This document shows positions 11,769 to 63,470 of a stretch of 64,000 nt of DNA, in pieces. Below the pieces are notes generated by a model. That model ran no database searches. It saw only the letters and a program-made list of their open reading frames with translations, and was not told where the DNA came from. Positions within the stretch are counted from its first letter, which is position 1; the number at the start of each line of letters is the position of its first letter. Source of the DNA: Tegillarca granosa. Lineage: Eukaryota. The DNA lies in contig CM056607.1 in assembly GCA_029721355.1 (NCBI GenBank), forward strand, positions 8,339,309-8,403,308, read 5' to 3'. The position numbers and the translations under genes are program-made.

Positions 11769-12407
11769 GTAAGTTTTTATTTTTAATATTCTTAAAATTA
11801 ATCATTGAGAGTCAGTTTTTCACACCCCCACCCCTAATGGCCATTCCTAACATATTAGTTAAAAAAAACCAGTTATTTTGATATTGTGATGGATTGTTGT
11901 TAGTAACCATGACAATATAAATTGCAGAATGATGAATTATAACTTGATGTTTGCAATGTCAGTGTATGTTTTCTGACGTTTAATTTAAATAGTCATATGC
12001 AGGGACAAAATTAATTATTTTGAATGAGATTTTTTATACTCTATATTGGTAGATTTCTCTTTACTACATTTCCATTATTTTAATATTAATAATCTATTAT
12101 ATGGTTTTCCAAACATTTCCATATAACATATTTCTATATTTCCCATTGATTTCCATTAGAAAATTCCTAAGGAGATTCTCATGTTGATAAGAACATCCCA
12201 TTTTTAACTGTCAACCTTAAGATAAGTTAAAAATTATCATGGTACATATCAAGCTGCCATTTTCAAGTTTCTAAACCAATGATTTCAATAATGCTTCACA
12301 GTTACCGATAGAGAGATATATTGGTCCTTGGATTGTACATGTATTTATTTAATATTTCAGCATTCTTTTACCACACCCTAATTAAATATACAAAATTTTA
12401 TCTGCAG

Positions 12408-12575
12408 GTTGAAGATGCAGAAGTAGCTTTAATGCAGCTGAAGAATTCTGTGTGTTCTGGAAATGATAAAAATAAACAACAACAATATACAGAGGAGTTT
12501 TATCAAGCCATTCCACATAAAATTAAATCCAGTTTAAATCTTAGACAAATCACAGCAAAACAAGATCTGTGTCAG
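12408..12575 (+). CDS. PARP4: PARP4-like exon 7; its 3' end is the founder of the 59-bp minisatellite
   Basis: tctgcag|GTT.. ..TGTCAG|gtatgt. VEDAEVALMQLKNSVCSGNDKNKQQQYTEEFYQAIPHKIKSSLNLRQITAKQDLCQ ~ human TAEQLQKMMTEFYRLIPHKGTMPKEVNLGLLAKKADLCQ. Confidence 0.85.
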
Positions 12576-15500: not shown

Positions 15501-16530
15501 ATCACAGCAAACAAGATCTGTGTCAGGTATGTGATTAAGATAAATAACCTTAGACAAATCACAGCAAAACAAGATCTGTGTCAGGTATGTGATGAAGATA
15601 AATAACCTTAGACAAATCACAGCAAAACAAGATCCGTGTCAGGTATGTGATTAAGATAAATAACCTTAGACAAATCACAGCAAAACAAGATCTGTGTCAG
15701 GTATGTGATTAAGATAAATAACCTTAGACAAATTACAGCAAGACAAGATCTGTGTCAGGTATGTGATTAAGATAAATAACCTTAGACAAATTACAGCAAG
15801 ACAAGATCCGTGTCAGGTGTGTGATTAAGATAAATAACCTTAGACAAATCAGAGCAAAACAAGATCTGTGTCAGGTATGTGATTAAGATAAATAACCTTA
15901 GACAAATCACAGCAAACAAGATCTGTGTCAGGTATGTGATTAAGATAAATAACCTTAGACAAATCAGAGCAAAACAAGATCTGTGTCAGGTGTGTGATTA
16001 AGATAAATAACCTTAGACAAATCACAGCAAAACAAGATCTGTGTCAGGTATGTGATTAAGATAAATAACCTTAGACAAATCACAGCAAAACAAGATCTGT
16101 GTCAGGTATGTGATTAAGATAAATAACCTTAGACAAATTACAGCAAGACAAGATCCGTGTCAGGTGTGTGATGAAGATAAATAACCTTAGACAAATCAGA
16201 GCAAAACAAGATCCGTGTCAGGTATGTGATGAAGATAAATAACCTTAGACAAATCACAGCAAAACAAGATCCGTGTCAGGTATGTGATTAAGATAAATAA
16301 CCTTAGACAAATCACAGCAAACAAGATCTGTGTCAGGTATGTGATGAAGATAAATAACCGTAGACAAATCACAGCAAAACAAGATCTGTGTCAGGTATGT
16401 GATGAAGATAAATAACCGTAGACAAATCACAGCAAAACAAGATCTGTGTCAGGTATGTGATTAAGATAAATAACCTTAGACAAATCACAACAAAACAAGA
16501 TCTGTGTCAGATATGTGATTAAGATAAATC
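12537..16530 (+). repeat. 59-bp minisatellite x ~67 (TTAGACAAATCACAGCAAAACAAGATCTGTGTCAGGTATGTGATGAAGATAAATAACC); the first unit is the last 39 nt of PARP4 exon 7 plus the first 20 nt of intron 7
   Basis: Direct reading. Near-identical units with point variants (gaag/taag, caaa/caag, ctt/cgt). Every unit retains TGTCAG|GTATGT. Confidence 0.95.
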
Positions 16531-28857: not shown

Positions 28858-29045
28858 GGGATACAGACCTCATTGCCTTTCGCTGTTTGGGTTCAAATCC
28901 AACTAAGGCAGATTCTAGTATGAGAGAGTTTGTCAGTTTGTTTGTTGAAGGGTGGTATTTTTTCTGGGCATTCCTGTTTTCTCCACCATTCTAGAACTGA
29001 CTTTTAAAGTAAAAAGAATCTTGACCAAGGTGTTAAACACTCTAT
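28858..29045 (+). mobile_element. tRNA-derived SINE family A copy A7 (plus orientation)
   Basis: ..gggttcaaatccaactaaggcagattctagtatgagagagtttgtcag..ccaccattctagaactgac..aagaatcttgaccaaggtgttaaacac. Confidence 0.5.
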
Positions 29046-31335: not shown

Positions 31336-32193
31336 GTAAATAATTACATCACAGGTAAAATGTCAGTAGTAAATAAGGAGTTTCAGGTTAGGATGAGTTT
31401 AGTTGAGTAGAAGAATACTGATGTTTTGTTGCCAAGTCAGAATTCTTTAACTTATATTGAGAAAGTCAGTTCTGAGATGGTGGAGGAATCTGAAGTGCCT
31501 GGAAAATACATGTATAACAAATGAATGAACAAACTTTCTCAAACTAGGATCTGCTAAAGTTGGATTTGAATTTAAGCTGTAAGAGGCACTTTGATCAGTA
31601 ATTGTGTTCTATAAATTACTCAGCTATTGGTGTCCCAGATTTATATAAAAATGTGTGCAAAGATCGTTACCGTTTTGATTTGTGGATATATTTAGGTTTC
31701 TCTCAATCGTAAATATGTTAATGTTAAATGACTTTCAATTAAAGTTTGTATGCAAATTTCTTTTTAAGACTTTTAGTCAGCAAACTGATGTTAAAATAAA
31801 TTGCAAAATGTTTCTTTGTTATTTTGTTTTTATTTCAAATCTGAATTAAAAAATTGCCAAATTATTATTTGAAGCACATATTTTTTTTTTCATCTTTTCA
31901 AATATGATAAATACATGTAGTACTCTTTAAAGTCAAAGTCAGTATTGCTTTCATTTAAGTCTCAAAACTATAGCTTTGAATTCTTAGCTTTTATTTCTTT
32001 TCTAAGATATTGAATGACTGCTAATACCTTCACTTTTTCAAGAAAGTTTAATTTGATCCAAAGGGGTCAAATGAAGTTTAGAAGGGGTCAAATGGGGTAT
32101 AGGTCAAAATCAAAGTCATTACACATTAAGTTATCACTTTTCTAAAGTTTTGTTTTACATACCTATCATAGCTTTGTCTTTTTTCATATGTAG

Positions 32194-39249: not shown

Positions 39250-39445
39250 CAATGGCTGAGTTGCCTAAAATACATGCTTATGGATCATTGCCTATCACTG
39301 CCTTGAGGCAAATCCCACTTAAAAAGATCCTAGTCTGAGAAAGTTTGCCAGTTCATGAAGGTTGATGGTTTTGTCCACCACCTCTGAACTGACCACCTTG
39401 ATATAAGAGAAGAAACCTTGACTAGAGGTAAAACACCATTAATCC
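39250..39445 (+). mobile_element. tRNA-derived SINE family A copy A6 (plus orientation; PARP4 intron 28)
   Basis: ggctgagttgcctaaaatacatgcttatggatcattgcc..ggcaaatcccactt..gatcctagtctgagaaagtttgccagtt..ccaccacctctgaactgac..cttgactagaggtaaaacaccatta. Confidence 0.5.
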
Positions 39446-40275: not shown

Positions 40276-40452
40276 AACCAATAACACTGTGTGTAAAAAC
40301 ACTGTCTGGTAAAACTCTAGGTGTTGGTGCAATGAGGAACCAGACAATCCGAGATCTAAAGGACCTGATATTTGACAGGGAAGGGATACCCCCAGAAACC
40401 CAGAGACTTGTCATGGGGGGAAAACAAAGAACAGATGATGAATTAATCCAAG
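40276..40452 (+). CDS. PARP4: PARP4-like exon 30: N-terminal half of a ubiquitin-like domain
   Basis: tattacag|AA.. ..TCCAAG|gtacta. EPITLCVKTLSGKTLGVGAMRNQTIRDLKDLIFDREGIPPETQRLVMGGKQRTDDELIQ ~ ubiquitin [32 protein letters not shown]. Confidence 0.75.
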
Positions 40453-40486
40453 GTACTATATCATTTAAAAAAAGACTACTCAATTG

Positions 40487-40517
40487 TAATTTTTTTTTTT
40501 TTTTTTTTTTTTTTTTT
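40487..40517. repeat. T30 homopolymer, 35 bp after the exon-30 donor
   Basis: Direct reading. Confidence 0.95.
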
Positions 40518-40599
40518 GGTTATAAATCTTTGTCTTTGTAATCAGTAAATAAAATATCAAGAATTTCAAATTTTTGTACAGAAAAAATTATAAACTGTT

Positions 40600-43500
40600 C
40601 AATTTTTATTTAGCCACCCCCTTATCACTACAAAATACACATATCATGTGAAATACAGTTACAGCTGCTCTACAGTTAAACATGTCTAAAAGCCATACCT
40701 GTTTTAGCCATCCCCTAATCACTAAAAGATACACATATTATATGAAATACAGTTACACCTGCTCTACAGTAAAACCTGTCTAAAAGCCATACCTGTTTTA
40801 GCCATCCCCTAATCACTATAAGATACACATATTATATGAAATACAGTTACACCTGCCCTACATTAAACCTGTCTAAAAGCCATACCTGTTTTAGCCATCC
40901 CCTAATCACTATAAGATACACATATTATATGAAATACAGTTACACCTGCTCTACAGTAAAACCTGTCTAAAAGCCATACCTGTTTTAGCCATCCCCTAAT
41001 CACTATAAGATACACATATTATATGAAATACAGTTACACCTGCCCTACATTAAACCTGTCTAAAAGCCATACCTGTTTTAGCTGTCCCCTAATCACTATA
41101 AGATACACATATTATATGAAATACAGTTACACCTGCCCTACAGTAAAACCTGTCTAAAAGCCATACCTGTTTTAGCTGTCCCCTAATCACTATAAGATAC
41201 ACATATTATATGAAATACAGTTACACCTGCTCTACAGTAAAACCTGTCTAAAAGCCATACCTGTTTTAGCTGTCCCCTAATCACTATAAGATACACATAT
41301 TATATGAAATACAGTTACACCTGCTCTACAGTAAAACCTGTCTAAAAGCCATACCTGTTTTAGCCATCCCCTAATCACTATAAGATACACATATTATATG
41401 AAATACAGTTACACCTGCTCTACAGTAAAACCTGTCTAAAAGCCATACCTGTTTTAGCTGTCCCCTAATCACTATAAGATACACATATTATATGAAATAC
41501 AGTTACACCTGCCCTACAGTAAAACCTGTCTAAAAGCCATACCTGTTTTAGCCATCCCCTAATCACTAAAAGATACACATATTATATGAAATACAGTTAC
41601 ACCTGCCCTACATTAAACCTGTCTTAAAGCCATACCTGTTTTAGCCATCCCCTAATCACTATAAGATACACATATTATATGAAATACAGTTACACCTGCC
41701 CTACATTAAACCTGTCTAAAAGCCATACCTGTTTTAGCTGTCCCCTAATCACTATAAGATACACATATTATATGAAATACAGTTACACCTGCCCTACAGT
41801 AAAACCTGTCTAAAAGCCATACCTGTTTTAGCCATCCCCTAATCACTAAAAGATACACATATTATATGAAATACAGTTACACCTGCCCTACATTAAACCT
41901 GTCTAAAAGCCATACCTGTTTTAGCTATCCCCTAATCACTAAAAGATACACATATTATATGAAATACAGTTACACCTGCTCTACAGTAAAACCTGTCTAA
42001 AAGCCATACCTGTTTTAGCCATCCCCTAATCACTATAAGATACACATATTATATGAAATACAGTTACACCTGCTCTACAGTAAAACCTGTCTAAAAGCCA
42101 TACCTGTTTTAGCCATCCCCTAATCACTAAAAGATACACATATTATATGAAATACAGTTACACCTGCTCTACAGTAAAACCTGTCTAAAAGCCATACCTG
42201 TTTTAGCCATCCCCTAATCACTAAAAGATACACATATTATATGAAATACAGTTACACCTGCTCTACAGTAAAACCTGTCAAAAAGCCATACCTGTTTTAG
42301 CCATCCCCTAATCACTAAAAGATACACATATTATATGAAATACAGTTACACCTGCTCTACAGTAAAACCTGTCTAAAAGCCATACCTGTTTTAGCCATCC
42401 CCTAATCACTATAAGATACACATATTATATGAAATACAGTTACACCTGCTCTACAGTAAAACCTGTCTAAAAGCCATACCTGTTTTAGCTGTCCCCTAAT
42501 CACTATAAGATACACATATTATATGAAATACAGTTACACCTGCTCTACAGTTAAACATGTCTAAAAGCCATACCTGTTTTAGCTGTCCCCTAATCACTAA
42601 AAGATACACATATTATATGAAATACAGTTACACCTGCTCTACAGTAAAACCTGTCTAAAAGCCATACCTGTTTTAGCCATCCCCTAATCACTATAAGATA
42701 CACATATTATATGAAATACAGTTACACCTGCTCTACAGTAAAACCTGTCTAAAAGCCATACCTGTTTTAGCTGTCCCCTAATTACTAAAAGATACACATA
42801 TTATATGAAATACAGTTACACCTGCTCTACAGTAAAACCTGTCTAAAAGCCATACCTGTTTTAGCTGTCCCCTAATCACTAAAAGATACACATATTATAT
42901 GAAATACAGTTACACCTGCTGTACAGTAAAACCTGTCTAAAAGTCATACCTGTTTTAGCTGTCCCCTAATCACTAAAAGATACACATATTATATGAAATA
43001 CAGTTACACCTGCTCTACAGTAAAACCTGTCTAAAAGCCATACCTGTTTTAGCTGTCCCCTAATCACTATAAGATACACATATTATATGAAATACAGTTA
43101 CACCTGCCCTACATGAAACCTGTCTAAAAGCCATACCTGTTTTAGCCATCCCCTAATCACTATAAGATACACATATTATATGAAATACAGTTACACCTGC
43201 CCTACATTAAACCTGTCTAAAAGCCATACCTGTTTTAGCTGTCCCCTAATCACTATAAGATACACATATTATATGAAATACAGTTACACCTGCTCTACAG
43301 TAAAACCTGTCTAAAAGCCATACCTGTTTTAGCTGTCCCCTAATCACTATAAGATACACATATTATATGAAATACAGTTACACCTGCCCTACATTAAACC
43401 TGTCTAAAAGCCATACCTGTTTTAGCCATCCCCTAATCACTATAAGATACACATATTATATGAAATACAGTTACACCTGCCCTACATTAAACCTGTCTAA

Positions 43501-43975
43501 AAGCCATACCTGTTTTAGCCATCCCCTAATCACTATAAGATACACATATTATATGAAATACAGTTACACCTGCCCTACATTAAACCTGTCTAAAAGCCAT
43601 ACCTGTTTTAGCTGTCCCCTAATCACTAAAAGATACACATATTATATGAAATACAGTTACACCTGCTCTACAGTAAAACCTGTCTAAAAGCCATACCTGT
43701 TTTAGCTGTCCCCTAATCACTAAAAGATACACATATTATATGAAATACAGTTACACCTGCTCTACAGTAAAACCTGTCTAAAAGCCATACCTGTTTTAGC
43801 TGTCCCCTAATCACTAAAAGATACACATATTATATGAAATACAGTTACACCTGCTCTACAGTAAAACCTGTCTAAAAGCCATACCTGTTTTAGCTGTCCC
43901 CTAATCACTATAAGATACACATATTATATGAAATACAGTTACACCTGCCCTGTAAAACCTGTCATACAGTTGAAA
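40600..43975 (+). repeat. 93/94-bp satellite x ~36 in PARP4 intron 30 (CCATACCTGTTTTAGCYRTCCCCTAATCACTAWAAGATACACATATTATATGAAATACAGTTACACCTGCYCTACAKTAAAACCTGTCTAAAAG)
   Basis: Direct reading. Two unit subtypes (acagtaaaacc / acattaaacc) alternate. ORF 43367..43687 is a translation of it. Confidence 0.95.
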
Positions 43976-44003
43976 CTGTCTAACATCCACCCTTATATGA
44001 TAA

Positions 44004-44393
44004 ATGGGAAATTTTGAAAATAATGGAGTCAGGCTGATATACCAACAAGGAACTCTTTATGATCTAGCTTACGCACTTGATGGAAAAGTGACACCAAGTC
44101 TGGAGGATTCTGAAATAAAGACAACTATCAAAAGTCACAAGAAGAAAAGAAAGCCTAAGAGGGAACAAGAAAAATATCAGACACAATTAGCTGAATCTAG
44201 TAAGGAACAAACACCACCAAGTTCAAGGTCGCCAAGTATGCAACCAGTAAAATACCATTTATGTATCAGTGAGGAACCATTGATGGGAGACTTGGAACAA
44301 GGATTACAGGATGTTGAAATGGGAATATCAAAGACCAAGCAAACAAGCATCCAAATTCAGTCTGAAATTAAATCTCAAGGTACACATTATTTA
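44004..44393 (+). CDS. Candidate upstream exon or ORF of the HSP70-fragment gene; non-HSP70, low-complexity, K/R-rich
   Basis: Open 130 codons ending ..SQ G|gtacac, a phase-1 donor compatible with the phase-1 acceptor of exon A. Starts 30 bp after the 93-bp satellite. No recognisable homology. Confidence 0.25.
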
Positions 44394-44689
44394 TATTTAT
44401 AGTTTATATCACCTGTAACTATGGTAGCTCACCTGGAGACATCTCTGACAACAGTGAAAAAAGTACCATATACATGTATATGTAGGTGAGCTACACATTG
44501 TTATGACAGGTCTTATTTAGATGACTGTTATATATATAAGATAGCATTAAATGGAAAAGTTTTAAAATACTGTCGAAATCCAATATTTATATATGAATCT
44601 TATACTTGGCTGTATCTTTTATTTACCACCCTTTTTTGAAGTAACAAAAATATTTTATTGCCTCAGTTGAAGTAAAGTGAAGTAAAGCC

Positions 44690-44925
44690 ACATATTGTGT
44701 TTAACACCCAAATTAAGGTTTTTTCACTGATATCAAGGAGGTCAGTTCTAAAATGGTGGAGGAAACAGGAGGGTCAAAGTCTTCATCAAATGAACTGACA
44801 ACCTTTTTCACATAAGGATCTGTCTTATCAGAAGTGGACCCAGTTATTAGAGGTTCTGTGATTTATGGGCTGGTGCTTTAGACCTCTTGGCTACAAAGGT
44901 CCTGCCCCAGCCTGAGCCATGATGA
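44690..44925 (-). mobile_element. tRNA-derived SINE family A copy A4
   Basis: gtttaacacccaaattaagg..aaaatggtggaggaaacaggag..gaactgacaacctttttcacataaggatctg..ggctggtgctttagacctcttggctacaaaggtcctgcccc. Confidence 0.5.
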
Positions 44926-45318
44926 ACATCATTGTTATTGCTAGGTTTCAATGTTAGTTTTTTCAACTAAACCAAAGGCTCAGATAATTTATTGTGATGG
45001 TTTACTATCTGCAATGTTATTTATTTTATGCTATAGTTATTTATTGATGTACAAGAGATCTAGGCAATGTATTAGTATGCTGTACTTCTGATTTATCCTT
45101 TTTTTTTTTTTTTTTTTGTTACTATAGTGTTCTTCTAATCCTTATATAGAAAATCATGTTTAAAGTTACATAAAAAAAAATTAATAAATAATAAAAATAA
45201 AACAATAAAAGAAATTTGTTCAAGAAGCAAAAAGCCTAATTAAATGACCTTAAGATACAGATATTGGTTAGTTTTGACTAGTAAAACTAATTTTTATTAT
45301 CTCCTATATATGTTTCAG

Positions 45319-45750
45319 ACTTAGAAGAAGAGGACAATTTAACCAATGATGATTTTAATGCAGAGTTAAGATGGTCCGAAGCAGATCAAATTCATTGTCT
45401 TCTCTTGCTTGATGTTACACCATTATCGTTGGGTATCGAAACAGCGGGTGGCCTTATGGATGTAATAATAAAACGAAACTGTACCATACCAACCAGAAAA
45501 TCTAAAAAATATTCCACATATTGTGATTATCAGACAAAAATAGTGATAAAAATATTTGAAGGTGAACGAGCATTAACCAAAGACAATAACTATTTAGGAG
45601 AATTTGAAATCCATAATATAATGCCTGCTCCCTATGGTGAGCCCCAGATTGAAGTCACTATGGATATTGATGCAAATGGTATTCTTACTGTGTCAGCAGT
45701 CGATAAATCTACAGGAAATGGCAACAAATTGTGTATTACTAATGACAAAG
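45319..45750 (+). CDS. HSP70-family fragment, exon A: substrate-binding domain (SBD-beta); no nucleotide-binding domain found nearby
   Basis: tgtttcag|AC.. ..GACAAAG|gtaaaa. (D)[143 protein letters not shown] ~ HSPA8 [118 protein letters not shown]. Confidence 0.75.
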
Positions 45751-46133
45751 GTAAAATAAAATCTTCACTCATCAAAACTGTGTCGATTTCTGATGTATCT
45801 AATTTTATCTAATTGCCAAAAGTAGTCTAAAATTTTTTTTTTTTAAATTTCACTAGAGTTAATTAGTTCAGCTTTCCCTTTTTCAAAAGCATTTTTAAAC
45901 AGAGATTGTTTGCTATTGTTTCAACATGTTTGAAAACTCTTAAAAATGTTTCTTTTAAACTACTAATATTTATAAAGTACTGTGAATGTCATGTGAGATG
46001 GCATGCAGAGGAATACATGTTTAATTAACATTAAAGCAAAGATTTTTCTTCTGAAAACTTTTAAACTTTTCTGAACTTTGTAGCTGATGCATAATTAGTT
46101 AATTTTTTTCCAAATTCATAAGTTCTGGCATTT

Positions 46134-46138
<5 letters not shown>

Positions 46139-46204
<66 letters not shown>
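46139..46204. repeat. (CT)33 microsatellite, 30 bp upstream of HSP70-fragment exon B
   Basis: Direct reading. Confidence 0.95.
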
Positions 46205-46208
<4 letters not shown>

Positions 46209-46233
46209 GACTACTTACACTTTCTGTTTTAAG

Positions 46234-46601
46234 GTCGCCTTACCAAAGATGAGATTGAGAAAATGATTAATGATTCTGAGAAATTTTGCAAGAAAGATAA
46301 AATTTGGCAACATTGTATCAGAGAGAGACTTATATCTGCAAACAGGAAGTACACAAAAGAATCATATTTTACAGAACAAACAATGATAAATGATATAGAC
46401 ATTTTTGACACTGATGATAAAGTCGCCAAATGGTTGGAGTCAGAAAAAACAAATTTATTTACCTCTGTGGAGCCAGTATTAGATCAACATAGTGATGGTC
46501 AAAAATGCAAAACTTTATCTGACCTTTCTTTGGACAGGTCAAATGAAAAATCACTGTCTAAAGGATACAAAAATGAAACAAAGATTGAGGAAGTTGACTA
46601 A
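46234..46601 (+). CDS. HSP70-family fragment, exon B: helical lid and C-terminal tail ending in EEVD, stop TAA
   Basis: gttttaag|GT.. A phase-1 acceptor matches the exon A donor. GRLTKDEIEKMINDSEKFCKKDKIWQHCIRERLISANRKYTKESYFTEQ..KGYKNETKIEEVD* ~ HSPA8 [48 protein letters not shown]. Confidence 0.7.
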
Positions 46602-46842
46602 TTTTTCTTAAACGTTTACCTGAGAATTGACATTTTTGTAATTTTTATTCATGAAAGTATAAGAATAACAATGCTGCCAGTTCAAATTACATAAATTGTA
46701 AAGCTGAAAAAAAAATTAAAAAAAAACAACAAATCTTGTTGATTGATCACCATCATTAGCTCAAATCTAAACATTATTAATGGTGATTAATTAAGATAGA
46801 ATTACTGTAAAATCACAAATATTTGCAGGGGATTAAATTTTT

Positions 46843-48577
46843 AGCTCACCTGAGCTGAAAGCACAGATGAGCTATTGCTATCCATCTTCGTCGATCGTGT
46901 GTCGTGCGTAAACTTTTCATTTTAATCTTCTCCTCCAAAACCACTGGGCCAAATTTAATGAAACTTGGTAACCATCATGCCTGGGTGAAGCCCTTTCAGA
47001 TTTGCACAAATAAAGGAGTAATGTCCCCTTGGGGCCCCATAAGGGGGGAAAGAGTGAAAAAATTTGAAATCTTCTCCTCTGAATCTACAAGAGATATACC
47101 TTAGTTATTTCATTTATAACATCCTTATGTCATCTATTTTCAGATTTGCACAAATGGTAGCCGTGGGGCTCAAAATGGGGAAATTGTAAGGCACTGAGTG
47201 GGGAAATTACTAAAAATTATATATTTGTCACTATATCTTGAAAACTATCAACTTTTTGTATAGGCATGTATATTAGAATATTGTAGGTATTGACATGCCA
47301 ATGATTTTGATATATATTGTTCAGGGTCATACATTCAAAGGTCAAGGTCACAGCTGCAAAAGAAGACATAATTTGCTAATTATCTTGAAAACTATTAACT
47401 TTTTACAGGCATGTATATTAGAATATTGTAGGTATTGCAACAACGATCAATTTGATATATGGTTCAAAGTCATATGTTGAAAGGTCAAGGTCACAGCTGC
47501 AAAAGAAGACTTAAATTGCTATTTATCTTGAAAACTTAAACTTTTTGTATAGGCATGTATATTAGAATATTGTAGCTATTGACATGCCAATCATTTTGAT
47601 ATATGATTCAAGGTCATACGTTCAAAGGTCAAGGTCACAGCTGCAAAAGAAGACTTAAATTGCTAATTATCTTGAAAACTAATAACTTTTTGTATAGGCA
47701 TGTATATTAGAATATTGTAGCTATTGACATGCCAATCATTTTGATATATGATTCAAGGTCATACGTTCAAAGGTCAAGGTCACAGCTGCAAAAGAAGACT
47801 TAAATTGCTAATTATCTTGAAAACTAATAACTTTTTGTATAGGCATGTATATTAGAATATTGTAGGTATTGTGACAAGGATCATTTTGATATATGGTTCA
47901 AGGTCATATGTTGAAAGGGCAAAGCAGCAAAAGAAGACATAAATTGCTAATTATCTTGAAAACTATTAACTTTTTGTATAGGCATTGCCACAACGATCAT
48001 TTTGATAAATGATACAAGGTCATATGTGGAAAGGTCAAGGTCACAGCTGCAAAAGAAGACTTAAATTGCTAATTATCTTGAAAACTATTAACTTTTTGTA
48101 TAAGCATATATATTAGAATATTTTAGGTATTGACATGACAATAATTTTGATACATGGGTCAAGGTCATATGTGGAAAGGTCAAGGTCATATCAACATAGG
48201 AATACTAAAAATACTAATTATCTTGAAAGCCTTTAATTTCATGCATAGGCATGTATATTAGAATAATGTAGGTATTGACATGACAATCATATATGGTTCG
48301 AGGTCATATATGTTCAAAGGTCAAGGACATAGCTGCATAAGTATACTGAAATTGATTTATGATTTGGAAATTATTCATTGCGATACAGTAACTTCATGCA
48401 TATTATATAAGCTACTTATAAATGAAATTTGAGTGGATATATTTCTGATTAAATTTGTGGAAGTTCTTAATTTGAGAAAAATTTTCAAGTTTCTGTACTT
48501 AATACATTGTCTATTGCACTTTGCATACAATATTGGACATATCTTCAGGTGAGCGTTAAGGCCCATGGGCCTCTTGT
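46843..48577 (+). mobile_element. Helentron-like non-autonomous element copy T3 with internal satellite monomers; PARP4 intron 30
   Basis: The 5' AGCTCACCTGAGC.. and 3' ..CTTCAGGTGAGCGTTAAGGCCCATGGGCCTCTTGT termini match T2. Internal ..tgtataggcatgtatattagaatattgtaggtattgacatg..caaggtcatatgttcaaaggtcaaggtcacagctgcaaaagaagac.. monomers. Confidence 0.5.
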
Positions 48578-48894
48578 ATTATTTTTGTGGGTAAGTAAAA
48601 ACCATGAAATTAAATGTCAATGAATTTTTTTAATTACCAAGACTCCCAGTGGGATGTTTTATCATAAACCCCAAATTTTCTCCCAACAAAACTTTTTAAT
48701 TGCATAACCATAAAAACTTAAATTGGAAGAATATGAATGATTCTAAAGTTTAAAATACAAACATAGAAGCCATGGATTTTTGGGTTTCAAAATACCATGG
48801 TGACAAGAGTTATTAATAAGCTTGCAAACAAATTATTACTTTATGTCATAAATAGTAATTGTGTTAATAGTTGATTATTGTTAAATCATTTTTA

Positions 48895-51083
48895 GCTCAC
48901 CTGGCTTTAGCCAGCGTGAGCTTATGGTATGATGCGGCGTGTGTATGTGCGTGCGTGCGTGCGTGCGTCCGTAAACTTTACATTTTAATCTTCTTCTCCA
49001 AAACCACTGGGCCAAATTTGATGAAACTTGGTTACCATTATGCCTGGGTGAAGCCCTTTCAGATTTGCAAAAATGAAAGAGTTATGTCCCCTTGGGGCCC
49101 CATAAGGGGGGAAATAGTGAAAAACTTTAAAAATCTTCTCCTCTGAATGTACAAGAGATATACCTTAGTTATTTCATTTATACCATCCCTAGGTCATCTA
49201 GTTTCAGATTTGCACAAATGGTAGCCATGGGGCTCAAAATGGGGAAATTATAAGGTACTAAGTGGGAAAATTGCTTAAAATTATATATTTGTCACTATAT
49301 CTTGAAAACAATTGACTTTTTGTATAGGCATGTATATTAGAATATTGTAGGTATTGACATGACAATCATTTTAATATATGGTTCAAGGTCATATGTTGAA
49401 AGGTCAAGGTCACAGCTGCAAAAAAAAAACTTAAATTGCTTATTATCTTGAAAACAATTGACTTTTTGTATAGGCATGTAAATTAGAATATTGTAGGTAT
49501 TGTGACAAAGATCATTTTGATATATGATACAAGGTCATATGTTCAAAGGTCAAGGTCACAGCTGCAAAAGAAGACATAAATTGCTAATTATCTTGAAAAC
49601 TATGAACTTTTTGTATAGGCATGTATATTAGAATATTGTAGGTATTGACATGACAATCATTTTGATATATGGATCAAGGTCATATGTTTAAAGGTCAAGG
49701 TCACAGCTGCAAAAGAAAACTTAAATTGCTAATTATCTTGAAAACTATAAACTTTTTGTATAGGCATGTATATTAAAATATTGTAGGTATTGACATGACA
49801 ATCATTTTGATATATGGTTCAAGGTTATATGTTGAAAGGTCAAGGTCACAGCTTCAAAAAAGACTTAAAATGCTAATTATTTTGTAAACTATGAACTTTT
49901 TGTATGGGCATGTATATTAGAATATTGTAGGTATTGACATGACGATCATTTTGATATATGGTTCAAGATCATATGTTCAAAGGTCAAGGTCACAGCTTCA
50001 AAAAAGACTTAAAAGGCTAATTATCTTGTAAACTATGAACTTTTTGTATAGGCATGTATATTAGAATATTGTAGGTATTGACATGACGATCATTTTGATA
50101 TATGGATCAGGGTCATATGTTGAAAGGTCAAGGTCATAGCTGCAAAAGAAGACTTAAATTGCTAATTATCTTGAAAACTATAAACTTTTTGTATGGGCAT
50201 GTATATTAGAATATTGTAGGTATTGACATGACAATCATTTTCATGTATGGTTCAAGGTTATATGTTGAAAGGTCAAGGTCACAGCTGCAAAAAAAAAGAC
50301 TTAAATTGCTTATTATCTTGAAAACAATATTGAGTGCGGAAGGTCCTTAGGTGGTATAGATTCAAAATTGTATCCAACATGTCTGTCAGAAATCCAAGAT
50401 GGCTGCCGTTACTCTAAATAACAAAAATAAAAAAATGGCCATTTTGGGTTTATTTTTGTACTGATTTTGTTGAAATTTGAAACATAGAAAATAGATGTCG
50501 AGGGATAAAACATATATAACGGGTTTTTCCTTACGATTTTTCATTTGTGTAATAATTACGTAATATGCAAATAAGGTTTATTTTTAGCCATAATCTTTGA
50601 AAATCTTCTCTTAAAGTACGTGGCCAATTGAAAGGATATGGAAGTGTGGAAGGTCCTTGGGTGGTATAGATTCAAAATTGTATCCGACATGTCTGTCGGA
50701 AATCCAAGATGGCCGCCATAGCAAAAATCGAAAAATGGCCATTATGGGTTTATTTACATGTATATACTGATTTTGTTGAAATTTATAACATAGAAACTAG
50801 ATGTTGGGGATAAAACATATGTAATGGGTTTTTCTGTACAATTTTCCTTTTTTGCAATAATTATGTAACATGCAAATAAGGTTTATTTCAGCCTAAATCT
50901 TCTGAAAGTACATGGCCAATTGAAAGAAATTTTATGATTCATAGCGCTTGAAATAATAGAAAATAAGGATATTGCTAGTGAGTTTGTTTTATATTTTATT
51001 GATTGAATATATTTAAAAAGAAAAAGCAAAGAACAAATAAGGATGTGCCAGGTGAGCGATACAGGCCCTATTGGGCCTCTTGT
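48895..51083 (+). mobile_element. Helentron-like non-autonomous element copy T4: same termini and satellite, plus a different cargo (a ~310-bp direct duplication at 50330-50940) and a variant 3' hairpin; PARP4 intron 30
   Basis: 5' tttttAGCTCACCTGGC..; 3' ..GCCAGGTGAGCGATACAGGCCCTATTGGGCCTCTTGT|t (hairpin AGGCCCTATTGGGCCT). Confidence 0.45.
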
Positions 51084-51689
51084 TTCAAACTGTTTAAAGA
51101 ACTTGTATACATGTATTAATAAATTCTTTTTATTGAATTGGTGTGTAAAGTTATGTGTTTTTTAAGAGGGGGAAGAACAGGCCTTCACAAACACCGATTT
51201 TTGGCAAAAAATTCCGATTCAAACTTAAAAAAACTGATTGAAAAATAGCCAAATCGGCTTTTTTCTCCATAATAGTAAGACAAAATCTGATTAAAAATTC
51301 TTTAATGCCGGCTTGTTAACAATTAAAATTACTCAGGACATTGTCACGATTCACTGAACTTCCCTATTCACAGGTTTTTAAGGTCTCATTCCAAGATCCC
51401 TGTGCCTCTGAAAATATGAGCGTAAAAGAAAAGATACGGCTGATTTCTTATGTTCTGCTCCATATTTGGTCTTATTGTATTATCATGACACTTAAAAAGG
51501 CCACTGTTTAAGCTATATAACAAACGTGATGTCTTAACTTGGAGCAGTATACTTGCTTCTCCAGCTTAAAATGTGTTGGTTCCACAGTTAATATGGTATG
51601 ATAGAGCTTGTTCCAGGAATTAATATAAATTAATTCATAAATACAACAAAGCAAGCTGCTTACAAATAAATTGACTCAGGGATATTGCA

Positions 51690-51835
51690 AGCCTAGGTTT
51701 ATCAAGGCCCTTAAAAGTTATATGGCTGCCATTATTCCTTCCTGTCAGATAGTCCTGGACTGGGATCAAATCTGGAACCTCCCATGTTACTGATAAGTGC
51801 TCTACTGAATGAGCTACCCAGACCATTACACAATG
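51690..51835 (-). mobile_element. SINE family B copy (minus), 160 bp upstream of exon 31
   Basis: Reverse complement reads AATGGTCTGGGTAGCTCATTCAGTAGAGCACTTATCAGTAACATGGGAGGTTCCAGATTTGATCCCAGTCCAGGACTATCTGACAGG, matching the 9118 head. Confidence 0.5.
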
Positions 51836-51992
51836 ACTTCAATACATTGAACACTAGGATGACAAACAAACTTTGATCTGTTGATATATAACTTGATCTT
51901 TTTACAAAACCCTGATCAATATTTTTATATATCTGATGGTTTGTTTAGAGCTTTAAGAGAAATACTGTTTATTTTTCTTCTTTACTTTGTAG

Positions 51993-52054
51993 ATTTACCA
52001 GAAGATGCCACTGTTTATTTAGTGTTACGTTTACGAGGAGGACCTGGTCCCTCA
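51993..52054 (+). CDS. PARP4: PARP4-like exon 31: C-terminal half of the ubiquitin-like domain (LVLRLRGG)
   Basis: tactttgtag|AT.. ..CCCTCA|gtaagt. A phase-1 acceptor matches the phase-1 donor at 40452. DLPEDATVYLVLRLRGGPGPS ~ ubiquitin ..STLHLVLRLRGG. Confidence 0.75.
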
Positions 52055-52792
52055 GTAAGTACTGTACAAGTTGGCTTTTCTGTGTATCACTTGATTTACT
52101 GTAACATTTGTGAATCTTTTTTTCTTGCTGGTTATGGAATTGCTTTTTCCTGGAATAACATACATTTTATAGAAAATATTAAACTGCCATCACTTTTACA
52201 CTTATGATGACACTTCTGTACTTAGTTAAAGTAGGTCCTTCACTTTTATGCTGGCAAATATCATTTTACATTATACTAAATGTATTTGTTTATAAAAAAG
52301 CCCTTTGTTTCTTTTATATAAGCATGCATGCATCCATCAGTCCATACATAAACTTTAATCTTCTCCTCTGAAACTACAGGGCCAAACAGAACCATATTCA
52401 GGTTGGAAGGTCCTTAGTGGAGTAGTTTAAAATTTGTACCAGATTCCACTGTAGCTTGGTTTAGATAGGTCGTTAATTTGGTTTAGCTTTGTCAGGTTCC
52501 ACTGCAGTTTAATATAGACAGGTTTTAACCATGGTTTAGTTTTCCCAGGTTCCTTTGCATATCAGTATAGACAGGTTCAATTTTGATACAGCTTTTACAG
52601 GTACTACTTTTCTTTGAACTGTGACAGCTGGATCTAAATTATGCTTTTAAATCAACTTTAGGAAGAAAGTTCACTTTAAGGCTACATCGGGAATTAACAT
52701 GAAAATATGTTCTAACAAGTTAATTTTAGACTAAATAAAATGCAGGTTTAATGTTGTTCTTCAAAATCTACTGGTTTTTTCTTCATTAACAG

Positions 52793-55218
52793 GACAATTT
52801 GAGTATCAGATCAGATATGTCCAGTGAGTTACCAGATCAAGTTCCTGTCCAAAAGGCTAACTTAATTGGTAAAAAAATAATTGCTACAAAAGGTGCAAGA
52901 AAATCTAGTTTTGAAGAAAGTGTCCCCACCTCAAAAGATCAAGTTGTTGACCAAGATGATGTTGATATTCCTAGTGACAGTTTAGATGAAAGTGATTACT
53001 CAGAGGAAGCTGAGTGTCCCATACAACAACCTATTCCTAAAAAAGAACTCCCTAAATATGCTGCCAGAAAGTCTGCACCAATAGCCAATATTATTACTGT
53101 TGACTATTCAGATGAGGCCGAGGATGATGAAGGTGAGAGCATTATGGGAACAGAAGATTCTCCGCCAGCTTCAGAAGACTTTTCTTATGCTTTCCAGTAT
53201 GCAGATAGAAAGGATAGCTTGCTGGATGAAGGTTCTTTTTCACCAGGGTTACAAAGTTATGACAAAAAAATCGATGCAATTGACATTGAAAAAGGGAGTT
53301 TGAAAACAGGTTCAGCCAATAAGAAGGCAAAAAAATCCAAAATGTCTGATATAAATGTTTCAGCTGATATGTCACCAACAAATGGTCCTTTTGAGGATAG
53401 TTCACTACCATCACATTTATTTGGTCTTGGATCATCTTCACTGTTGGAAACAACAAATGCATTGGATATTGAGGGTGAAATAGATTTGTCAGACTTCCTG
53501 AATGGAACTGTTGCTACACCATTGTTCCAAAGTCAAGATAGTACTACTTTTAATGATGCTCTCATGAATGAATCAGAACCCCCTGCAGATGTTCCAACAC
53601 AATCATTTCAAGCATTTGAGCTAGCATCACCTATGTACCAGCAAGTATCACCATGTTATAACCCCACATCTCCATCCTATAGTCCCACATCTCCATCTTA
53701 CAGCCCCACATCACCAGCATATAACCCTGCAACTCCAGCATACAGTCTAACATCTCCAGCATACAAACCCTCTTCATCGTCCTTTGACAAGACAGGTCAT
53801 AGTGACATGCATACTCTTACAGTTCAGTCTGCTGGATTTGAACCAGAAAAAGATGAAAGACATGTATCTGATATGTATTTTGCTCCAGACTTTGATCCTG
53901 TTTTGTTACCAGCAAAGTTACCATCAAAACCAAGCAAGCATACTGCCTTTGGTTTGAGTGGATATGGGTCACTGGACCAGTCAGGGTTTGATTCTAGTGA
54001 ACTGAGTCGTCTTCATTTCCCTGGTTTCAGTTCTGAAGGATATAGCTCCCAGAGCCAGTCAAGATTTGATTCCAGTGGAACAAAAAAACCACATGCATTT
54101 GGTTTTGGGGGAAATCTTGAACTTCAAAATCAAATCCAACAATGTATACAACCACCACCACCACCACCAGTCAGAAAGAGAACAATAAGACAGACATTTA
54201 TTGATAAAGAATTGATGCAAGAAGTGGATCCTCATACTGAAGAAAATATTAACCACACATTTCAACCTCAGGTACAGCCTTCTTTACAAGACATACCTTT
54301 GCCACCAGAATCACCTCTGTGGAAATCATCAGATGAATCATACTTACATGCTCTTGACAAAAATTCAGCACATTATGATCCAAAAACCAGATTGATGATT
54401 ACTGCTGAGAGTAGATTAGTGGATACAGACAGTAGGGTCAAAGGTTTTCAGGACAGAGATCTTTCCCATAAATTTGTAATAAACAAGAGAGGTAGAGGAA
54501 GGGGAGGTAAAGTAATCAGAATGTCAGTATCAAGTGAGCAAAATGTACAAGAAAAAAGGAAGAGAGAGGGCAAACATAGGAGCCCTGATTCAGAAAGTAG
54601 ATCAAGAAATAGAAATGTGAGGCAATGGCAAGGTAGTAGAAGCTGGTCTATAAGTAGGTCTAGAAGCAGAAGTCATGGACATAGGGTAGAAAGAAGAAGG
54701 TCAAGAAGCAGAAGTCGTGAACCTAGGGTAGACAGGAGAAGTAGGTCAAGAAGCAGAAGTCATGAACCTAGGGTAGACAGGAGAAGTAGGTCTAGAAGCA
54801 GAAGTGATGGACATAGTGTAGACATGAGAACTAGGTCAAGAAGCAGAAGTCCAGAGCACAGGGATAGATGGTCAAGAAGACGGTCTAGTAGCAGAAGTCA
54901 TGAACATAGTGTAGACATGAGAACTGGGTCAAGAAGTGGAGGTTTTGGTTACCAAAGTGACAGAGGAATAGGGTTTAGAAATAGATCAAGAAGCAGAAGT
55001 TATGATCACTCTGCCACTAAAAAGAGGGGAAAAAGTAGGTCTAGAGAAAGGGGACAAAAAGATGAAGGAACCAGAAAATCAAGGAGTAGAGACAAGGATA
55101 GACAAAGACATAAAGATAGACAGTTAGCTGTTAGTCCAGAGAGACATGTTTCTTTTCTAGATGCTGCTACATCAAGAGAAAGCATGGGCAGAGATGCTAG
55201 GAAAGATGAAAATAAACA
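52793..55218 (+). CDS. PARP4: PARP4-like exon 32: 2.4-kb exon encoding an acidic/S-P-rich low-complexity region, 6 RNA-Pol-II-CTD-like YSPTSPS heptads, a PPPPPP tract and an Arg/Ser (RS) domain
   Basis: cattaacag|GAC.. Open for 808 codons. The TAA at 55220 overlaps a consensus donor ca|GTAAGT at 55219, which must be used to reach the conserved C-terminal exons. Contains [41 protein letters not shown] and [36 protein letters not shown]. Confidence 0.75.
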
Positions 55219-56287
55219 GTAAGTATTTTATATGATTTATCTTTAAAATATTTGTAAAATCATTTGTTAAGGTTACAAGCCAAAAAATGGTTTTATCTCC
55301 AATCATTACCAAAATATATTAATATAATGAAAATACAAGAGCCCCAATTTGATTTAAGTCTTTAGAAAGGATCCTGCTTATTGAGGCTTTTGGGGGCCCA
55401 TCTTCCAGATAACTTTTTTATCTTAAAATATTTATGGATAATTATACCAGCACTACCATATGCAATATCACACACCCTAAATATGACATGGGTCTTTACA
55501 TAATTGATTTTTTGCATTGTACATCAGCAGACCAACTTGATGATTCAGCTGTTGATGTACAGGGCTAATATCACCATATACCTTAATCATTTGCTAGAAA
55601 ATTCTGTTACTGCCTGATCCCTTGTTGAGATTAATTCTATTTCTGCCCTTAACTAAACTTCCTGATTTTCAATCACTACGTGATTGTCTATTACTTTGAA
55701 CATCTCAGACAATTACTTAAATCAGTTTTGACAATAGAATAGGAGTTGTATTCTTGTCTGTGACATATTTGCTTGGCAAGCTAGCCACTCAACAAAGAGT
55801 CAACCTGAGTGTATGCTTGTATAAAGCAGACAATAACACACACCTGCACATACATGTAATCCTTAGGATTAATAAAACTTGCTCTTTTCACAAATAGCTG
55901 AAAAATTGCTGAGGTTTAACAATGTAAAAGTCAATCCATGTTCCAAGGGTGTGACATGACCTTGAATCATGTCATGTGTAAGGTCAAGGTCATGGAGTGC
56001 CTGTCTGCAGGGGTATTAGAAAGTACTGGGGGTATTACTGGAGAAAATTCTAATTAATCTTGGTAAGAAAACATCATCATTAATATCTTTTAAAATTCAA
56101 TTTTCCTTAAATATTTTTTACCACAAAATGTTTTGACTTGTATTTTTAGATTGCTATTTTTTTACAACTAGAGCAATGAAATTGGCATTGTATTTATATC
56201 AAAAGATTTTCATGCCAGTGTAGACTATGTATTGAGTCTATTGACAGTCAGTACTCTTTTTTATTGAATTTACTTATGTAATTCCAG

Positions 56288-57049: not shown

Positions 57050-57312
57050 AGATGCCAGAAGTGAAGTTGAGTGGAGTAATGGTGTTTAACACCCCAGTCA
57101 AGATTCTTTCACTTATACCAAGGCAGTCAGTTCTGTAATGATGAAGAATCTTGAGTGCCTGAAGAAAATATCTGACCTTTGACAAGCAAACTGACAAACT
57201 ATCTCACACTAGGATCTGCCCAAATGGGTTTGAAGCTAGGCAGTGCAAGGCATTGTGATCCGTAAGTGCACACTTTAAACCTTATGTCCACCAAGTCCCT
57301 GGTAGAGGCAGG
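57050..57312 (-). mobile_element. tRNA-derived SINE family A copy A3 (PARP4 intron 34)
   Basis: gagtggagtaatggtgtttaacaccccagtcaagattctttcac..caaactgacaaactatctcacactaggatctgcccaaatgggtttgaagctaggcagtgcaaggcattgtgatccgtaagtgcacactttaaacc.. Confidence 0.6.
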
Positions 57313-61734: not shown

Positions 61735-62198
61735 TCAGTGTGTGTGCATGCATGCGCAAGTGTGTCAACCTGACAACATTTGAAAGTAGCTTTAAGATAA
61801 AGATTTGTGTTACAAACACAATTTCTTTTATTTTGACATTTCCAATAAGTTGTTTAAAGTATAAGCCCTTGTACCATTAAAAGAATGATTCTTATTTTGA
61901 ACACCATGTTTTAACAGCTTATTTTATTGCAGGCTTTACTTATCTAATGTAAATACAGCTGTTATGTGATGAATTAAAAATTATAAATTTATATTGGTGG
62001 TAATTCATAAATAAATTCAAACCCATGCCAGGCTGCATGAAACAGACTAAGCAAGATGGGTCCATCTGTAAAATGGGAGATACCAAAACATGCTACAAAT
62101 GAAGAAAAGTAAACAGTTAATAGGGGTAATTTTTCTGCTGCTTCAATATGATGGAAAATGGGATAGGTACAGTTTAAATGTGTTGGACAGTTACTTAC

Positions 62199-62346
62199 CG
62201 GCCAATTGTAATAAAGATGAGTCAGCTTGTAAGTCAATCTCTGCATATGATCTGGTTTTAATCCAGTTGTATCCCACACAACATTGTAGTGAGTTGGTGT
62301 AACTGTACCCTGTCTAACTGATTGAGACACCAAGAAGAAATCATAC
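62199..62346 (-). CDS. Piwi-like gene, penultimate exon (PIWI domain)
   Basis: Minus strand: ttttag|GTATGATTTC.. ..TGGCCG|gtaagt. [49 protein letters not shown] ~ human [51 protein letters not shown]. Confidence 0.85.
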
Positions 62347-62879
62347 CTAAAACATCAAATATAATTAAACAATGAATATTATTCTATTGCTCTGGATTGT
62401 CCATTCTACTTTAGATTAATTAACTTATGATCAACTCCAGGTCACATAAATGACACCCACTAAACACAATGCAACTGAGTAGAGGGATTAATCTAGGTTT
62501 TAGGGAAAACTACAATTTTGTTAATGGTGAAAAATCTGGAGTGGTCACTAACAGTTGATGCAGAGGATAAACAAGTTGTGGATGGGGGTGAAGTTCCCTC
62601 CTAGCACAAAACTAATTTTATCATTTTATTATCTTAAAAAGAAGACATAGAGTACCCTCCAAAACAAGGTGAAAAAGGACATAAGGGAATGCAAATTTTA
62701 TTGATGACTTAAAAAAAATATTACCAAATGAAAACATTAATTTCCAACCTCATCTTCAACTGACAGATCTACTGCGAACTTACAACACAAAACTATCATA
62801 ATCAAAATGTAATGCATGCATGACAGGATGTCTCAAATTTTTTTTATGTCACTTATCTTATTTCCATCATTTCCAGAAA

Positions 62880-63300
62880 AAGGTTAGTTCTCCCAAAACC
62901 TGATTAATCCCTGCAGCCATGGCAAATGAAGCTCCCCAAAACCAAGATATATCCCTGTAGCCATGGCAAATGAAGTTCCTCCAAAATCCAGATTAATCCC
63001 TGCAGCCATGGTAAATGAAGTTCCCCCAAAACAAAGATATATCCCTGTAGCCATGGCAAATGAAGTTCCCCCAAAACAAAGGCCATGGTAAATGAAGTTC
63101 CCCCAAAACCAAGATATATCCCTGTAGCCATGGCAAATGAAGTTCCCCGAAAATCCAGATTTATCCCTGCAGCCATGGTAAATGAAGTTCCCCCAAAACA
63201 AAGATATATCCCTGTAGCCATGGCAAATGAAGTTCCCCAAAAATCCAGGATTAATCCCTGCAGCCATGGCAAATGAGAAAACAATAATTTCCCTGGTGTA
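62880..63300 (+). repeat. ~60-bp tandem repeat x ~7 (CCCTGYAGCCATGGYAAATGAAGTTCCYCMAAAYCMAGRTWTAT) inside the Piwi-like intron
   Basis: Direct reading; ORFs 62884-63417 / 62904-63335 (-) and 63085-63276 (+) are its translations. Confidence 0.85.
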
Positions 63301-63313
63301 TATATAAACATAC

Positions 63314-63439
63314 CACTCTGGTCTGGTAACATCACTATCTATAACTGTTCCTGGAGGTGGATTGGTCAGGGAAGGTCCAGTCCTAGCAAAAAATCTTGTA
63401 TTAATCCTCTTCTTCACAACAACTACTCCAACCTTGGGA
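63314..63439 (-). CDS. Piwi-like gene, antepenultimate exon (PIWI domain)
   Basis: Minus strand: ttttcag|TCCCAAGG.. ..GAGTG|gtatgt. PKVGVVVVKKRINTRFFARTGPSLTNPPPGTVIDSDVTRPEW ~ human [41 protein letters not shown]. The next exon begins with G, completing the W codon. Confidence 0.8.
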
Positions 63440-63470
63440 CTGAAAAAAAAGATAAAGAATCAGATATTAA

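Follow-up and report, generated by a model that had tools for sequence, protein, structure and literature searches.

A candidate HSP70 substrate-binding-domain gene without a nucleotide-binding domain, nested in a PARP4-like gene of Tegillarca granosa

HSP70 chaperones of the cytosolic Hsc70/Hsp70 class (HSPA8/HSPA1A; structures 7HSC/1CKR and 4PO2) are, by sequence, the closest described relatives of a predicted protein that we report here from the clam Tegillarca granosa. Its gene lies at 44004-46601 of a 64,000-nucleotide stretch of DNA (GenBank assembly GCA_029721355.1, contig CM056607.1, positions 8,339,309 to 8,403,308 of the forward strand; hereafter the window, whose coordinates are used throughout) and appears to encode an HSP70 substrate-binding domain (SBD) without a nucleotide-binding domain (NBD), inside an intron of a PARP4-like gene. 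With cytosolic Hsc70/Hsp70 the clam gene shares the interdomain linker LLLLDV, a full SBDβ, lid helices A and B and the terminal motif IEEVD. In contrast to these chaperones, however, the clam protein has a 125-residue orphan N terminus in place of the NBD, a distal lid and tail that are almost unrecognizable, with no GGMP/Gly-rich tail, and replacements of the latch arginine and of several invariant loop residues.

The HSP70 family of T. granosa is large, comprising 65 genes with predicted products of 173-944 amino acids, among them the 'HSPa B2' and HSPA12 groups; EEVD is kept in some paralogues only, and all 11 HSPa B2 genes are reported to contain both NBD and SBD (Kim et al. 2024, PMC10939072). 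In the part of that article that bears on the motif, which cites PMC8913300, EEVD is given a role with tetratricopeptide repeat (TPR) co-chaperones and class-B J-proteins. The gene described here belongs to the same species and family and is likewise a product of lineage-specific duplication, but it has no NBD and, instead of belonging to a tandem cluster, occupies a PARP4-like intron by itself.

SBD-only laboratory constructs of DnaK, Hsc70, Hsp70 and BiP (1DKZ, 7HSC, 4PO2 and 5E85) have the same linker, SBDβ and lid content as the clam protein and both fold and bind peptides without an NBD. They are engineered truncations without the orphan N terminus, and most are without the EEVD tail. Precedents for the loss of one module are HSPA13/STCH, an ATPase core without SBD, and HSC54, a splice variant of HSPA8 in which part of the SBD and lid is missing; these are modulators rather than full chaperones. 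Both retain the NBD, whereas the clam gene is the reciprocal case, in which SBD and EEVD are kept and the NBD is lost. Truncated HSP70 models are abundant in automatically annotated bivalve genomes. A literature search for natural NBD-less or 'SBD-only' HSP70s, for holdase work on isolated SBDs and for intron maps of bivalve hsc70 genes found nothing usable.

An HSP70 substrate-binding module without its ATPase domain

The predicted gene consists of three exons which, when joined, give an uninterrupted coding sequence of 391 codons in which every splice site is canonical. Its features are:

44004..44379, + strand: exon 1, the orphan N-terminal coding exon, with ATG at 44004, 125 codons plus 1 nt and a phase-1 donor
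44380..45318, + strand: intron 1, 939 nt, phase 1
45319..45750, + strand: exon 2, encoding an acidic pre-linker, a remnant of the last NBD helix, the linker CLLLLDV and the complete SBDβ sandwich to ...ITNDKG
45751..46233, + strand: intron 2, 483 nt, phase 1, splitting the Gly codon of NDK-G-RL (HSPA8 codon 508)
46234..46601, + strand: exon 3, coding part, with lid helices A and B (RLTKDEIEKMINDSEKF...), a diverged distal lid, IEEVD and TAA
46715..46720, + strand: possible polyadenylation signal ATTAAA, 114 nt 3' of the stop codon, weak evidence in an AT-rich genome

The 391-residue product would comprise, in order, a disordered basic N terminus, a predicted helix, an acidic stretch, the linker, SBDβ, lid helices A and B, a degenerate distal lid and IEEVD-COOH. 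The ATG of the K/R-rich exon 1 lies immediately 3' of a TAA, its frame stays open until 44399 and its donor is CAAG/GTACAC at 44379/44380; the acceptor of intron 1 is preceded by a long pyrimidine tract (...TATATATGTTTCAG/AC). At the start of exon 2 the nucleotides AC complete the phase-1 codon, after which come 143 full codons and a final G that opens the Gly codon. Exon 2 has no Met before M172, so that a complete SBD needs an upstream coding exon. Intron 2, which contains a (TC)33 tract at 46138-46204, has canonical GT..AG boundaries (AAAG/GTAAAA ... TTTTAAG/G). In exon 3 the invariant Trp (KWLE) is kept within the strongly diverged distal lid, the tail is non-Gly-rich, and the C terminus ...TKIEEVD is followed by the TAA stop codon at 46599-46601.

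An earlier reading of this DNA (the original prediction) had proposed the two SBD exons with their IEEVD ending, and these are confirmed by the reading frame, the GT..AG intron and the Pfam HSP70 match. It had also proposed a K/R-rich N-terminal frame, for which the ATG at 44004, the open frame and a phase-1 donor all hold; the donor, however, is not at 44393 as then supposed, there being no GT at 44394. Its assignment of phases was correct, in that the donor at 40452 in the gene surrounding the locus (the host), the exon 1 donor and the acceptor at 45319 are all phase 1 and G + AC gives Asp.

Exons 2 and 3 together (266 residues) match the Pfam HSP70 family (PF00012) with E=1.1e-50, at profile positions 381-570 of 599 only. 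The closest solved structure is the SBD of rat Hsc70 (1CKR/7HSC; E=1.8e-58), and in the ranking of structure matches cytosolic Hsc70/Hsp70 comes first, followed by BiP, mortalin and DnaK. We then searched both strands of the whole window by tblastn with human HSPA8. Residues 380-510 matched 45366-45758 (64% identity, E=1e-49) and residues 508-586 matched 46233-46451 (30% identity, E=0.019); no segment of the 64 kb, on either strand, matched the NBD (best non-SBD match, E=2.2). Exon 1 gave no match to Pfam HSP70 at E≤1, and the Pfam scan and the HSPA8 search together ruled out any concealed remnant of the NBD in exon 1 and intron 1. The claimed absence of NBD exons upstream of the SBD is thus upheld and extends to the whole window. 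The identity of ~55% quoted in the original prediction is a fair overall figure: SBDβ reaches 64%, the lid ~25-30%, and identity to HSP70s in the databases ranges over 49-65%.

We aligned the 391-residue protein with 48 HSP70s (alignment A1, 49 sequences) and read from it the equivalences of pocket residues to DnaK and HSPA8. The linker CLLLLDV occupies residues 152-158; its leading Asp is replaced by Cys, and L154-V158 fall in columns invariant across the 49 sequences. At the pocket and arch positions, residues are either retained or replaced conservatively (I165, T167, M172, F to Y190, Y193, V to I200, I202 and I236). Lid helices A and B are recognizable, the distal lid is identical to the consensus at 12 of 71 positions and the latch Arg is Tyr. 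A structure prediction by AlphaFold2 (AF2), run on a shallow alignment (mean predicted local distance difference test score (pLDDT) 52.9), gave disorder for residues 1-93, a helix at 93-123, β-strands at 189-265 (pLDDT 67-84) and a helix at 274-322 (pLDDT 70-84), and its top Foldseek matches in the PDB were all HSP70 SBDs.

Signs of selective constraint, the deposited model and the possibility of decay

Across its 49 sequences, the clam protein among them, alignment A1 has 63 invariant columns, which take in LLLLDV, ETAGG, EGER, PAPxGxPQ and TNDKGRL. SBDβ is identical to the eukaryotic HSP70 consensus at 82 of 119 positions (69%), and its 37 replacements have a mean BLOSUM62 score of +0.16, compared with -0.56±0.26 in neutral simulation at similar divergence. 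In simulations of neutral mutation, which counted stops without indels, SBDβ remained stop-free in 5% of cases (0.053), and the lid, identical to the consensus at 25 of 111 positions, remained so in 0 of 1,000 at the observed protein divergence. IEEVD is identical at 5/5 positions and the rest of the tail at ~17%. The pattern reads as a constrained β domain, an open but freely varying spacer and a preserved end motif, as would be expected of a translated protein that uses its pocket and EEVD. A frame still open, a β domain changed conservatively and an unbroken IEEVD all speak against neutral decay, and on these signatures the gene looks real and selectively maintained.

Exon 1 is an orphan yet looks coding, a chance open reading frame (ORF) being unlikely (P about 0.001). 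A plus-strand ORF of at least 132 codons arose within 43964-45318 in 0.14% of first-order Markov simulations, and the G+C contents at the three codon positions of exon 1 (GC1/GC2/GC3 = 0.46/0.35/0.29) resemble those of the bona fide exons of the window, the neighbouring introns being flat. Its product contains an NLS-like (nuclear localization signal) motif, KKKRKPKR, at residues 46-53 and matches no Pfam family significantly (best E=0.021, below the curated cut-off). Exon 1 and the upstream host exon that encodes part of a ubiquitin-like domain both end in CAAG/GTAC; the possibility that one is a duplicate of the other was rejected, exon 1 having no DNA or protein similarity to the rest of the window.

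On balance we favour, with some reserve, the reading that this is a lineage-specific NBD-less HSP70 paralogue, an independent three-exon nested gene corresponding to the deposited model KUTeg_009021, which would have arisen by DNA-level capture of hsc70-type 3' exons and whose product is probably an ATP-independent binder and adaptor for TPR co-chaperones. The sequence shows the domain content, the conserved pocket residues, IEEVD and the signatures of constraint; expression, folding, binding and localization of the SBD protein are inferred. Without an ATPase domain there would be no nucleotide-driven opening, and extended hydrophobic segments would be bound as by an isolated SBD, with slow exchange, making the protein an ATP-independent holdase or adaptor. 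IEEVD could recruit HOP, CHIP and class-B J-proteins, or compete for them with full-length HSP70/HSC70, possibly in the nucleus. The conserved pocket residues and IEEVD make a role as holdase or as CHIP/HOP decoy a reasonable proposal, and the LLLLDV linker, kept despite there being no NBD to dock on, could have a pseudo-substrate role. More speculatively, and in our estimate rather doubtfully, the locus may encode a naturally selected half-HSP70, reduced to the client-binding domain and the IEEVD docking tail behind a new N terminus that bears an NLS, which in a stress-tolerant clam would work in the nucleus as an ATP-free holdase or else, as adaptor or decoy, reroute the access of HOP, CHIP and DNAJB to full-length HSP70s; if spliced to PARP4, it may instead couple a vault PARP physically to chaperone-ubiquitin triage.

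If expressed and functional, the gene would be a natural experiment that separates client binding and co-chaperone docking by HSP70 from the ATPase cycle, an uncoupling for which, to our knowledge, work has relied almost entirely on engineered fragments. The locus would, in addition, clearly illustrate a new gene formed by exon capture and a de novo first exon within a host intron, and bears on how the very large HSP70 repertoires of bivalves diversify. Less ordinary is the way in which three features come together: the NBD is gone completely, the pocket and IEEVD still appear to be constrained, and the first exon, with its NLS-like motif, looks de novo. If not expressed, the locus is another decaying fragment of an expanding family.

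The deposited model KUTeg_009021 (T. granosa, 385 residues, 'hypothetical protein'; 'Heat shock protein 70' in UniRef) was the top database match (E=3e-164, 97% identical), and exon 1 is 100% identical to its residues 1-125; the remaining matches are generic HSP70s of 49-65% identity that cover at most 82% of the query. KUTeg_009021 is built from exactly exon 1 and both SBD exons, and its sole difference is 'NS' in place of 'IVIKIFEG', which traces to one run of A in exon 2:

45536..45540, + strand: A5 homopolymer within exon 2; the GenBank assembly behind the deposited model evidently has A6, a frameshift with a stop at residue 206

Addition of one A to this run and removal of a 19-nt GT..AG piece at 45543-45561 reproduces KUTeg_009021 at 385 of 385 residues. 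The deposited assembly would accordingly contain an error in the homopolymer or else a genuine frameshift allele, masked by an implausibly short 19-nt intron of the annotator's making, and the case is a caution on automatic gene models, since here a 19-nt pseudo-intron conceals a frameshift. Because the source of KUTeg_009021 differs from the window by an indel, two non-identical sequences share this exon arrangement. The architecture, which the original prediction had called novel, has therefore been deposited already, as an automatic and unreviewed prediction, but not previously described. Of the two possibilities that the same prediction had left side by side, the independent gene corresponds to this model, whereas a PARP4 isoform is backed by phase compatibility only.

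A possible but, we think, less than probable alternative is that the locus is a non-functional relic, a partial HSP70 duplicate in the PARP4-like intron that is decaying or was recently inactivated, with the upstream ORF and the gene model both ab initio artefacts. Several observations speak for this or weigh against a maintained gene. The protein is a singleton, with no protein beyond KUTeg_009021 exceeding 58% identity to it among 5.8 billion, and as such is a single-species fragment in a clam family of 65 members with massive lineage-specific duplication. Its orphan first exon has no homologues beyond KUTeg_009021 among 1.84 billion representative proteins. SBDβ departs at 22 of 90 positions that are at least 95% conserved in other HSP70s (other sequences, at most 8.6%), and the lid at 23 of 36 such positions (others, at most 27%). 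These exceptional changes at otherwise invariant positions include T173D, G225N, P227M, V233E and R231Y, the last at the lid-latch arginine, which in our own numbering we take to be R469 of HSPA8 and R467 of DnaK. Since near-invariant residues have changed, constraint must have been relaxed or redirected. Replacements in the lid score -0.73 on BLOSUM62 against a neutral expectation of -0.76 and so look neutral, and the argument from ORF retention presupposes that divergence arose after truncation. The AF2 model is of moderate confidence, with β-domain residues 160-186 below 50 and the distal lid below 57. No canonical heat-shock element was found near the gene, the sole perfect trimer in the window (at 60541) being at chance level; the locus is embedded between satellite arrays; and the A6 frameshift that lies behind the 19-nt pseudo-intron would, if real, be a null allele.

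Against decay stand the 391 codons that are open over three exons with their GT-AG sites intact, in frames that rarely or never stay open in the neutral simulations (SBDβ and lid, respectively, indels not being counted). The SBDβ replacements are significantly conservative, IEEVD is preserved without change together with its stop codon, the periodic composition of the first exon resembles that of real exons, and the A6 difference may be a mere homopolymer sequencing error.

Origin of the copy and its relation to the host gene

The simplest origin for a nested gene of this kind would be one in which a duplication of DNA copied the last (3') exons of a cytosolic hsc70-type gene with introns. Such a copy would start at or near a conserved phase-1 intron before the '...AVQAAIL' codons, ~15 residues ahead of the linker, and the start codon would come from a new first exon, specific to the species and with its donor in phase. 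A copy that begins in the intron before the linker-coding exon accounts for both the clean break between NBD and SBD and the phase-1 acceptor. The acceptor at 45319 is phase 1 and lies 16 codons ahead of the residue aligned with L380 of HSPA8. The hsc70 locus of an unrelated eukaryote (L002) has a phase-1 intron just before AVQAAIL, which splits codon 374 (CCAG/CT GTC CAG; HSPA8 numbering), and an identical boundary is implied by the ORF starts of two further HSP70 entries, P0029 and P0100. An hsc70 locus from a barnacle (L001) has no introns and hence gives no information on their positions. Clam exon 2 is longer by 10 codons at its 5' end (acidic EEED...NDD), an extension that may reflect an inserted stretch or an acceptor moved upstream. 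The position of intron 2 is presumably that of human HSPA8 intron 7. A processed retrocopy or retrogene is ruled out by the retained 483-nt GT-AG intron and the phase-1 acceptor of parental type.

In P0002, an HSP70 from a marine catalogue, the segment AAVQAAIL...NDKG is repeated, with breaks exactly at the exon boundaries of the clam gene, which are presumably HSPA8 exon boundaries too. The repeat gives the appearance of an exon-level duplication, or of an artefact of back-splicing.

The locus lies within host intron 40453-51992 (11.5 kb), on the same strand (+) and in sense. This intron splits a ubiquitin-like (UBL) domain between two exons:

40276..40452, + strand: host exon encoding the first ~59 residues of the UBL domain; donor CAAG/GTACTA, phase 1; matched by P0189 and P0168
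51993..52054, + strand: host exon encoding the remainder of the UBL domain (D-LPEDATVYLVLRLRGGPGPS); acceptor TTTGTAG/AT, phase 1; donor GTAAGT at 52055

When joined, the two UBL exons match Pfam ubiquitin with E=1.7e-12 over profile positions 1-72 of 72. The domain ends in LRLRGG and is present also in P0189 (Mytilus coruscus) and P0168 (a metagenomic VIT-vWA-UBL protein); we know of no UBL domain in vertebrate PARP4. P0189 and P0168 each carry post-vWA PARP4 exons and a complete UBL in one polypeptide, and since they link the two, the UBL belongs to the host. Searched exon by exon, the host matches Pfam BRCT (8e-4 and 5e-5), PARP_reg (1e-3), PARP (1e-6 and 3e-3) and VIT (3e-4), with vWA supported through orthologue alignments only. 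The concatenated host exons match PARP4 orthologues at 2e-106 to 2e-83, and tblastn of these orthologues places host exons between 17.4 and 34.5 kb. By these matches the host has a BRCT - PARP regulatory/catalytic - VIT - vWA architecture and is PARP4-like, so that the proposed PARP4 context, including the splitting of the UBL by the intron, is borne out by Pfam and orthologues alike.

When T. granosa models of the host were sought, a query of the UBL and an 810-residue exon returned generic ubiquitins only, and one of PARP/VIT/vWA returned only a 48%-identical paralogue, KUTeg_006934; the host locus seems to be unannotated in the deposited protein set. The 810-codon open host exon (52790-55219, +), which lies 3' of the UBL, encodes heptads like those of the RNA polymerase II C-terminal domain (Pfam RNA_pol_Rpb1_R, 3e-4) and a long Arg/Ser-rich tail resembling SR proteins, an unusual C terminus for PARP4.

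We consider it unlikely that the SBD exons serve as alternative 3'-terminal exons of the PARP4-like host, with 40452 spliced to 45319 and polyadenylation after 46601. The product, BRCT-PARP-VIT-vWA-...-half-UBL-SBD-IEEVD, would be a vault-PARP isoform with a client-binding module and a TPR-docking tail. The SBD exons do lie on the host strand in a host intron, and the acceptor at 45319 has a strong pyrimidine tract and precedes the constitutive acceptor at 51993; both 40452 and 45319 are phase 1, the junction ...DDELIQ-D-LEEED... is in frame and stop-free, and the missing start codon before M172 calls for some coding exon upstream. However, a phase match has a prior of about one in three, and as acceptor 45319 takes its phase from the intron of the parental hsc70 gene, its agreement with host donor 40452 is partly coincidence. 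Such splicing would moreover truncate the ubiquitin fold after ~59 of 76 residues, leaving it unlikely to be stable, whereas the orthologous proteins P0189 and P0168 run on into a complete UBL, and it leaves unexplained a dedicated, in-phase and coding-like first exon 940 nt upstream of 45319.

That HSP70 3' exons were mis-joined into this locus during assembly is very improbable, for although the long flanking satellite arrays are hard to assemble, the arrangement of exon 1 with the SBD recurs in the second sequence that underlies the indel-bearing GenBank model, in a record with no contig longer than 53 kb and thus none as long as the window, and the SBD, at most 65% identical to any other HSP70, is too diverged to be a collapsed normal copy.

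Surrounding repeats and neighbouring genes

The window has a G+C content of ~32%, as AT-rich eukaryotic DNA. The HSP70-containing segment forms an island at ~43.96-46.9 kb, between a satellite and a pair of duplicated 2-kb blocks. The satellite is the following:

40609..43963, no strand assigned: 94-bp satellite, 35.8 copies with 96% matches, filling the host intron to 40 nt before the exon 1 ATG

This array accounts for the GC skew of -0.30 to -0.43 (C over G) in the 40-44 kb bins. On the other side, 46903-50340 comprises two ~2-kb blocks that are duplicates at 88-92% identity; behind each block come arrays of a 145-bp repeat, and together these fill the intron downstream of the gene. Capture by a transposon with terminal repeats was considered and rejected, no convincing direct or inverted repeats bracketing 43.96-46.9 kb. 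Intron 1 contains an interspersed repeat at ~44694-44827, probably a SINE/MITE-like element (short interspersed or miniature inverted-repeat transposable element), with diverged copies (69-79%) at 57079-57146, 28904-29040, 39325-39439 and 31443-31553.

Elsewhere in the window, an early host intron between two BRCT exons holds an intact-looking ORF of 361 codons (6146-7228, +) for a Tc1/mariner-type transposase (DDE_3, 2e-11; HTH_Tnp_Tc3_2, 1e-7). A long minisatellite at 12300-16450, whose units are open on both strands (ITLDKSQQNKICVRYV...) and which shows strong A-over-T skew, lies directly 3' of an ORF at 12312-12596 with a weak match to the PARP regulatory domain. At the far end of the window, two minus-strand exons (61992-62354 and 62887-63459) encode the C-terminal portion of a Piwi domain (Pfam Piwi, 8e-18 and 4e-9), and this piwi/argonaute gene converges upon the 3' end of the PARP4-like gene.

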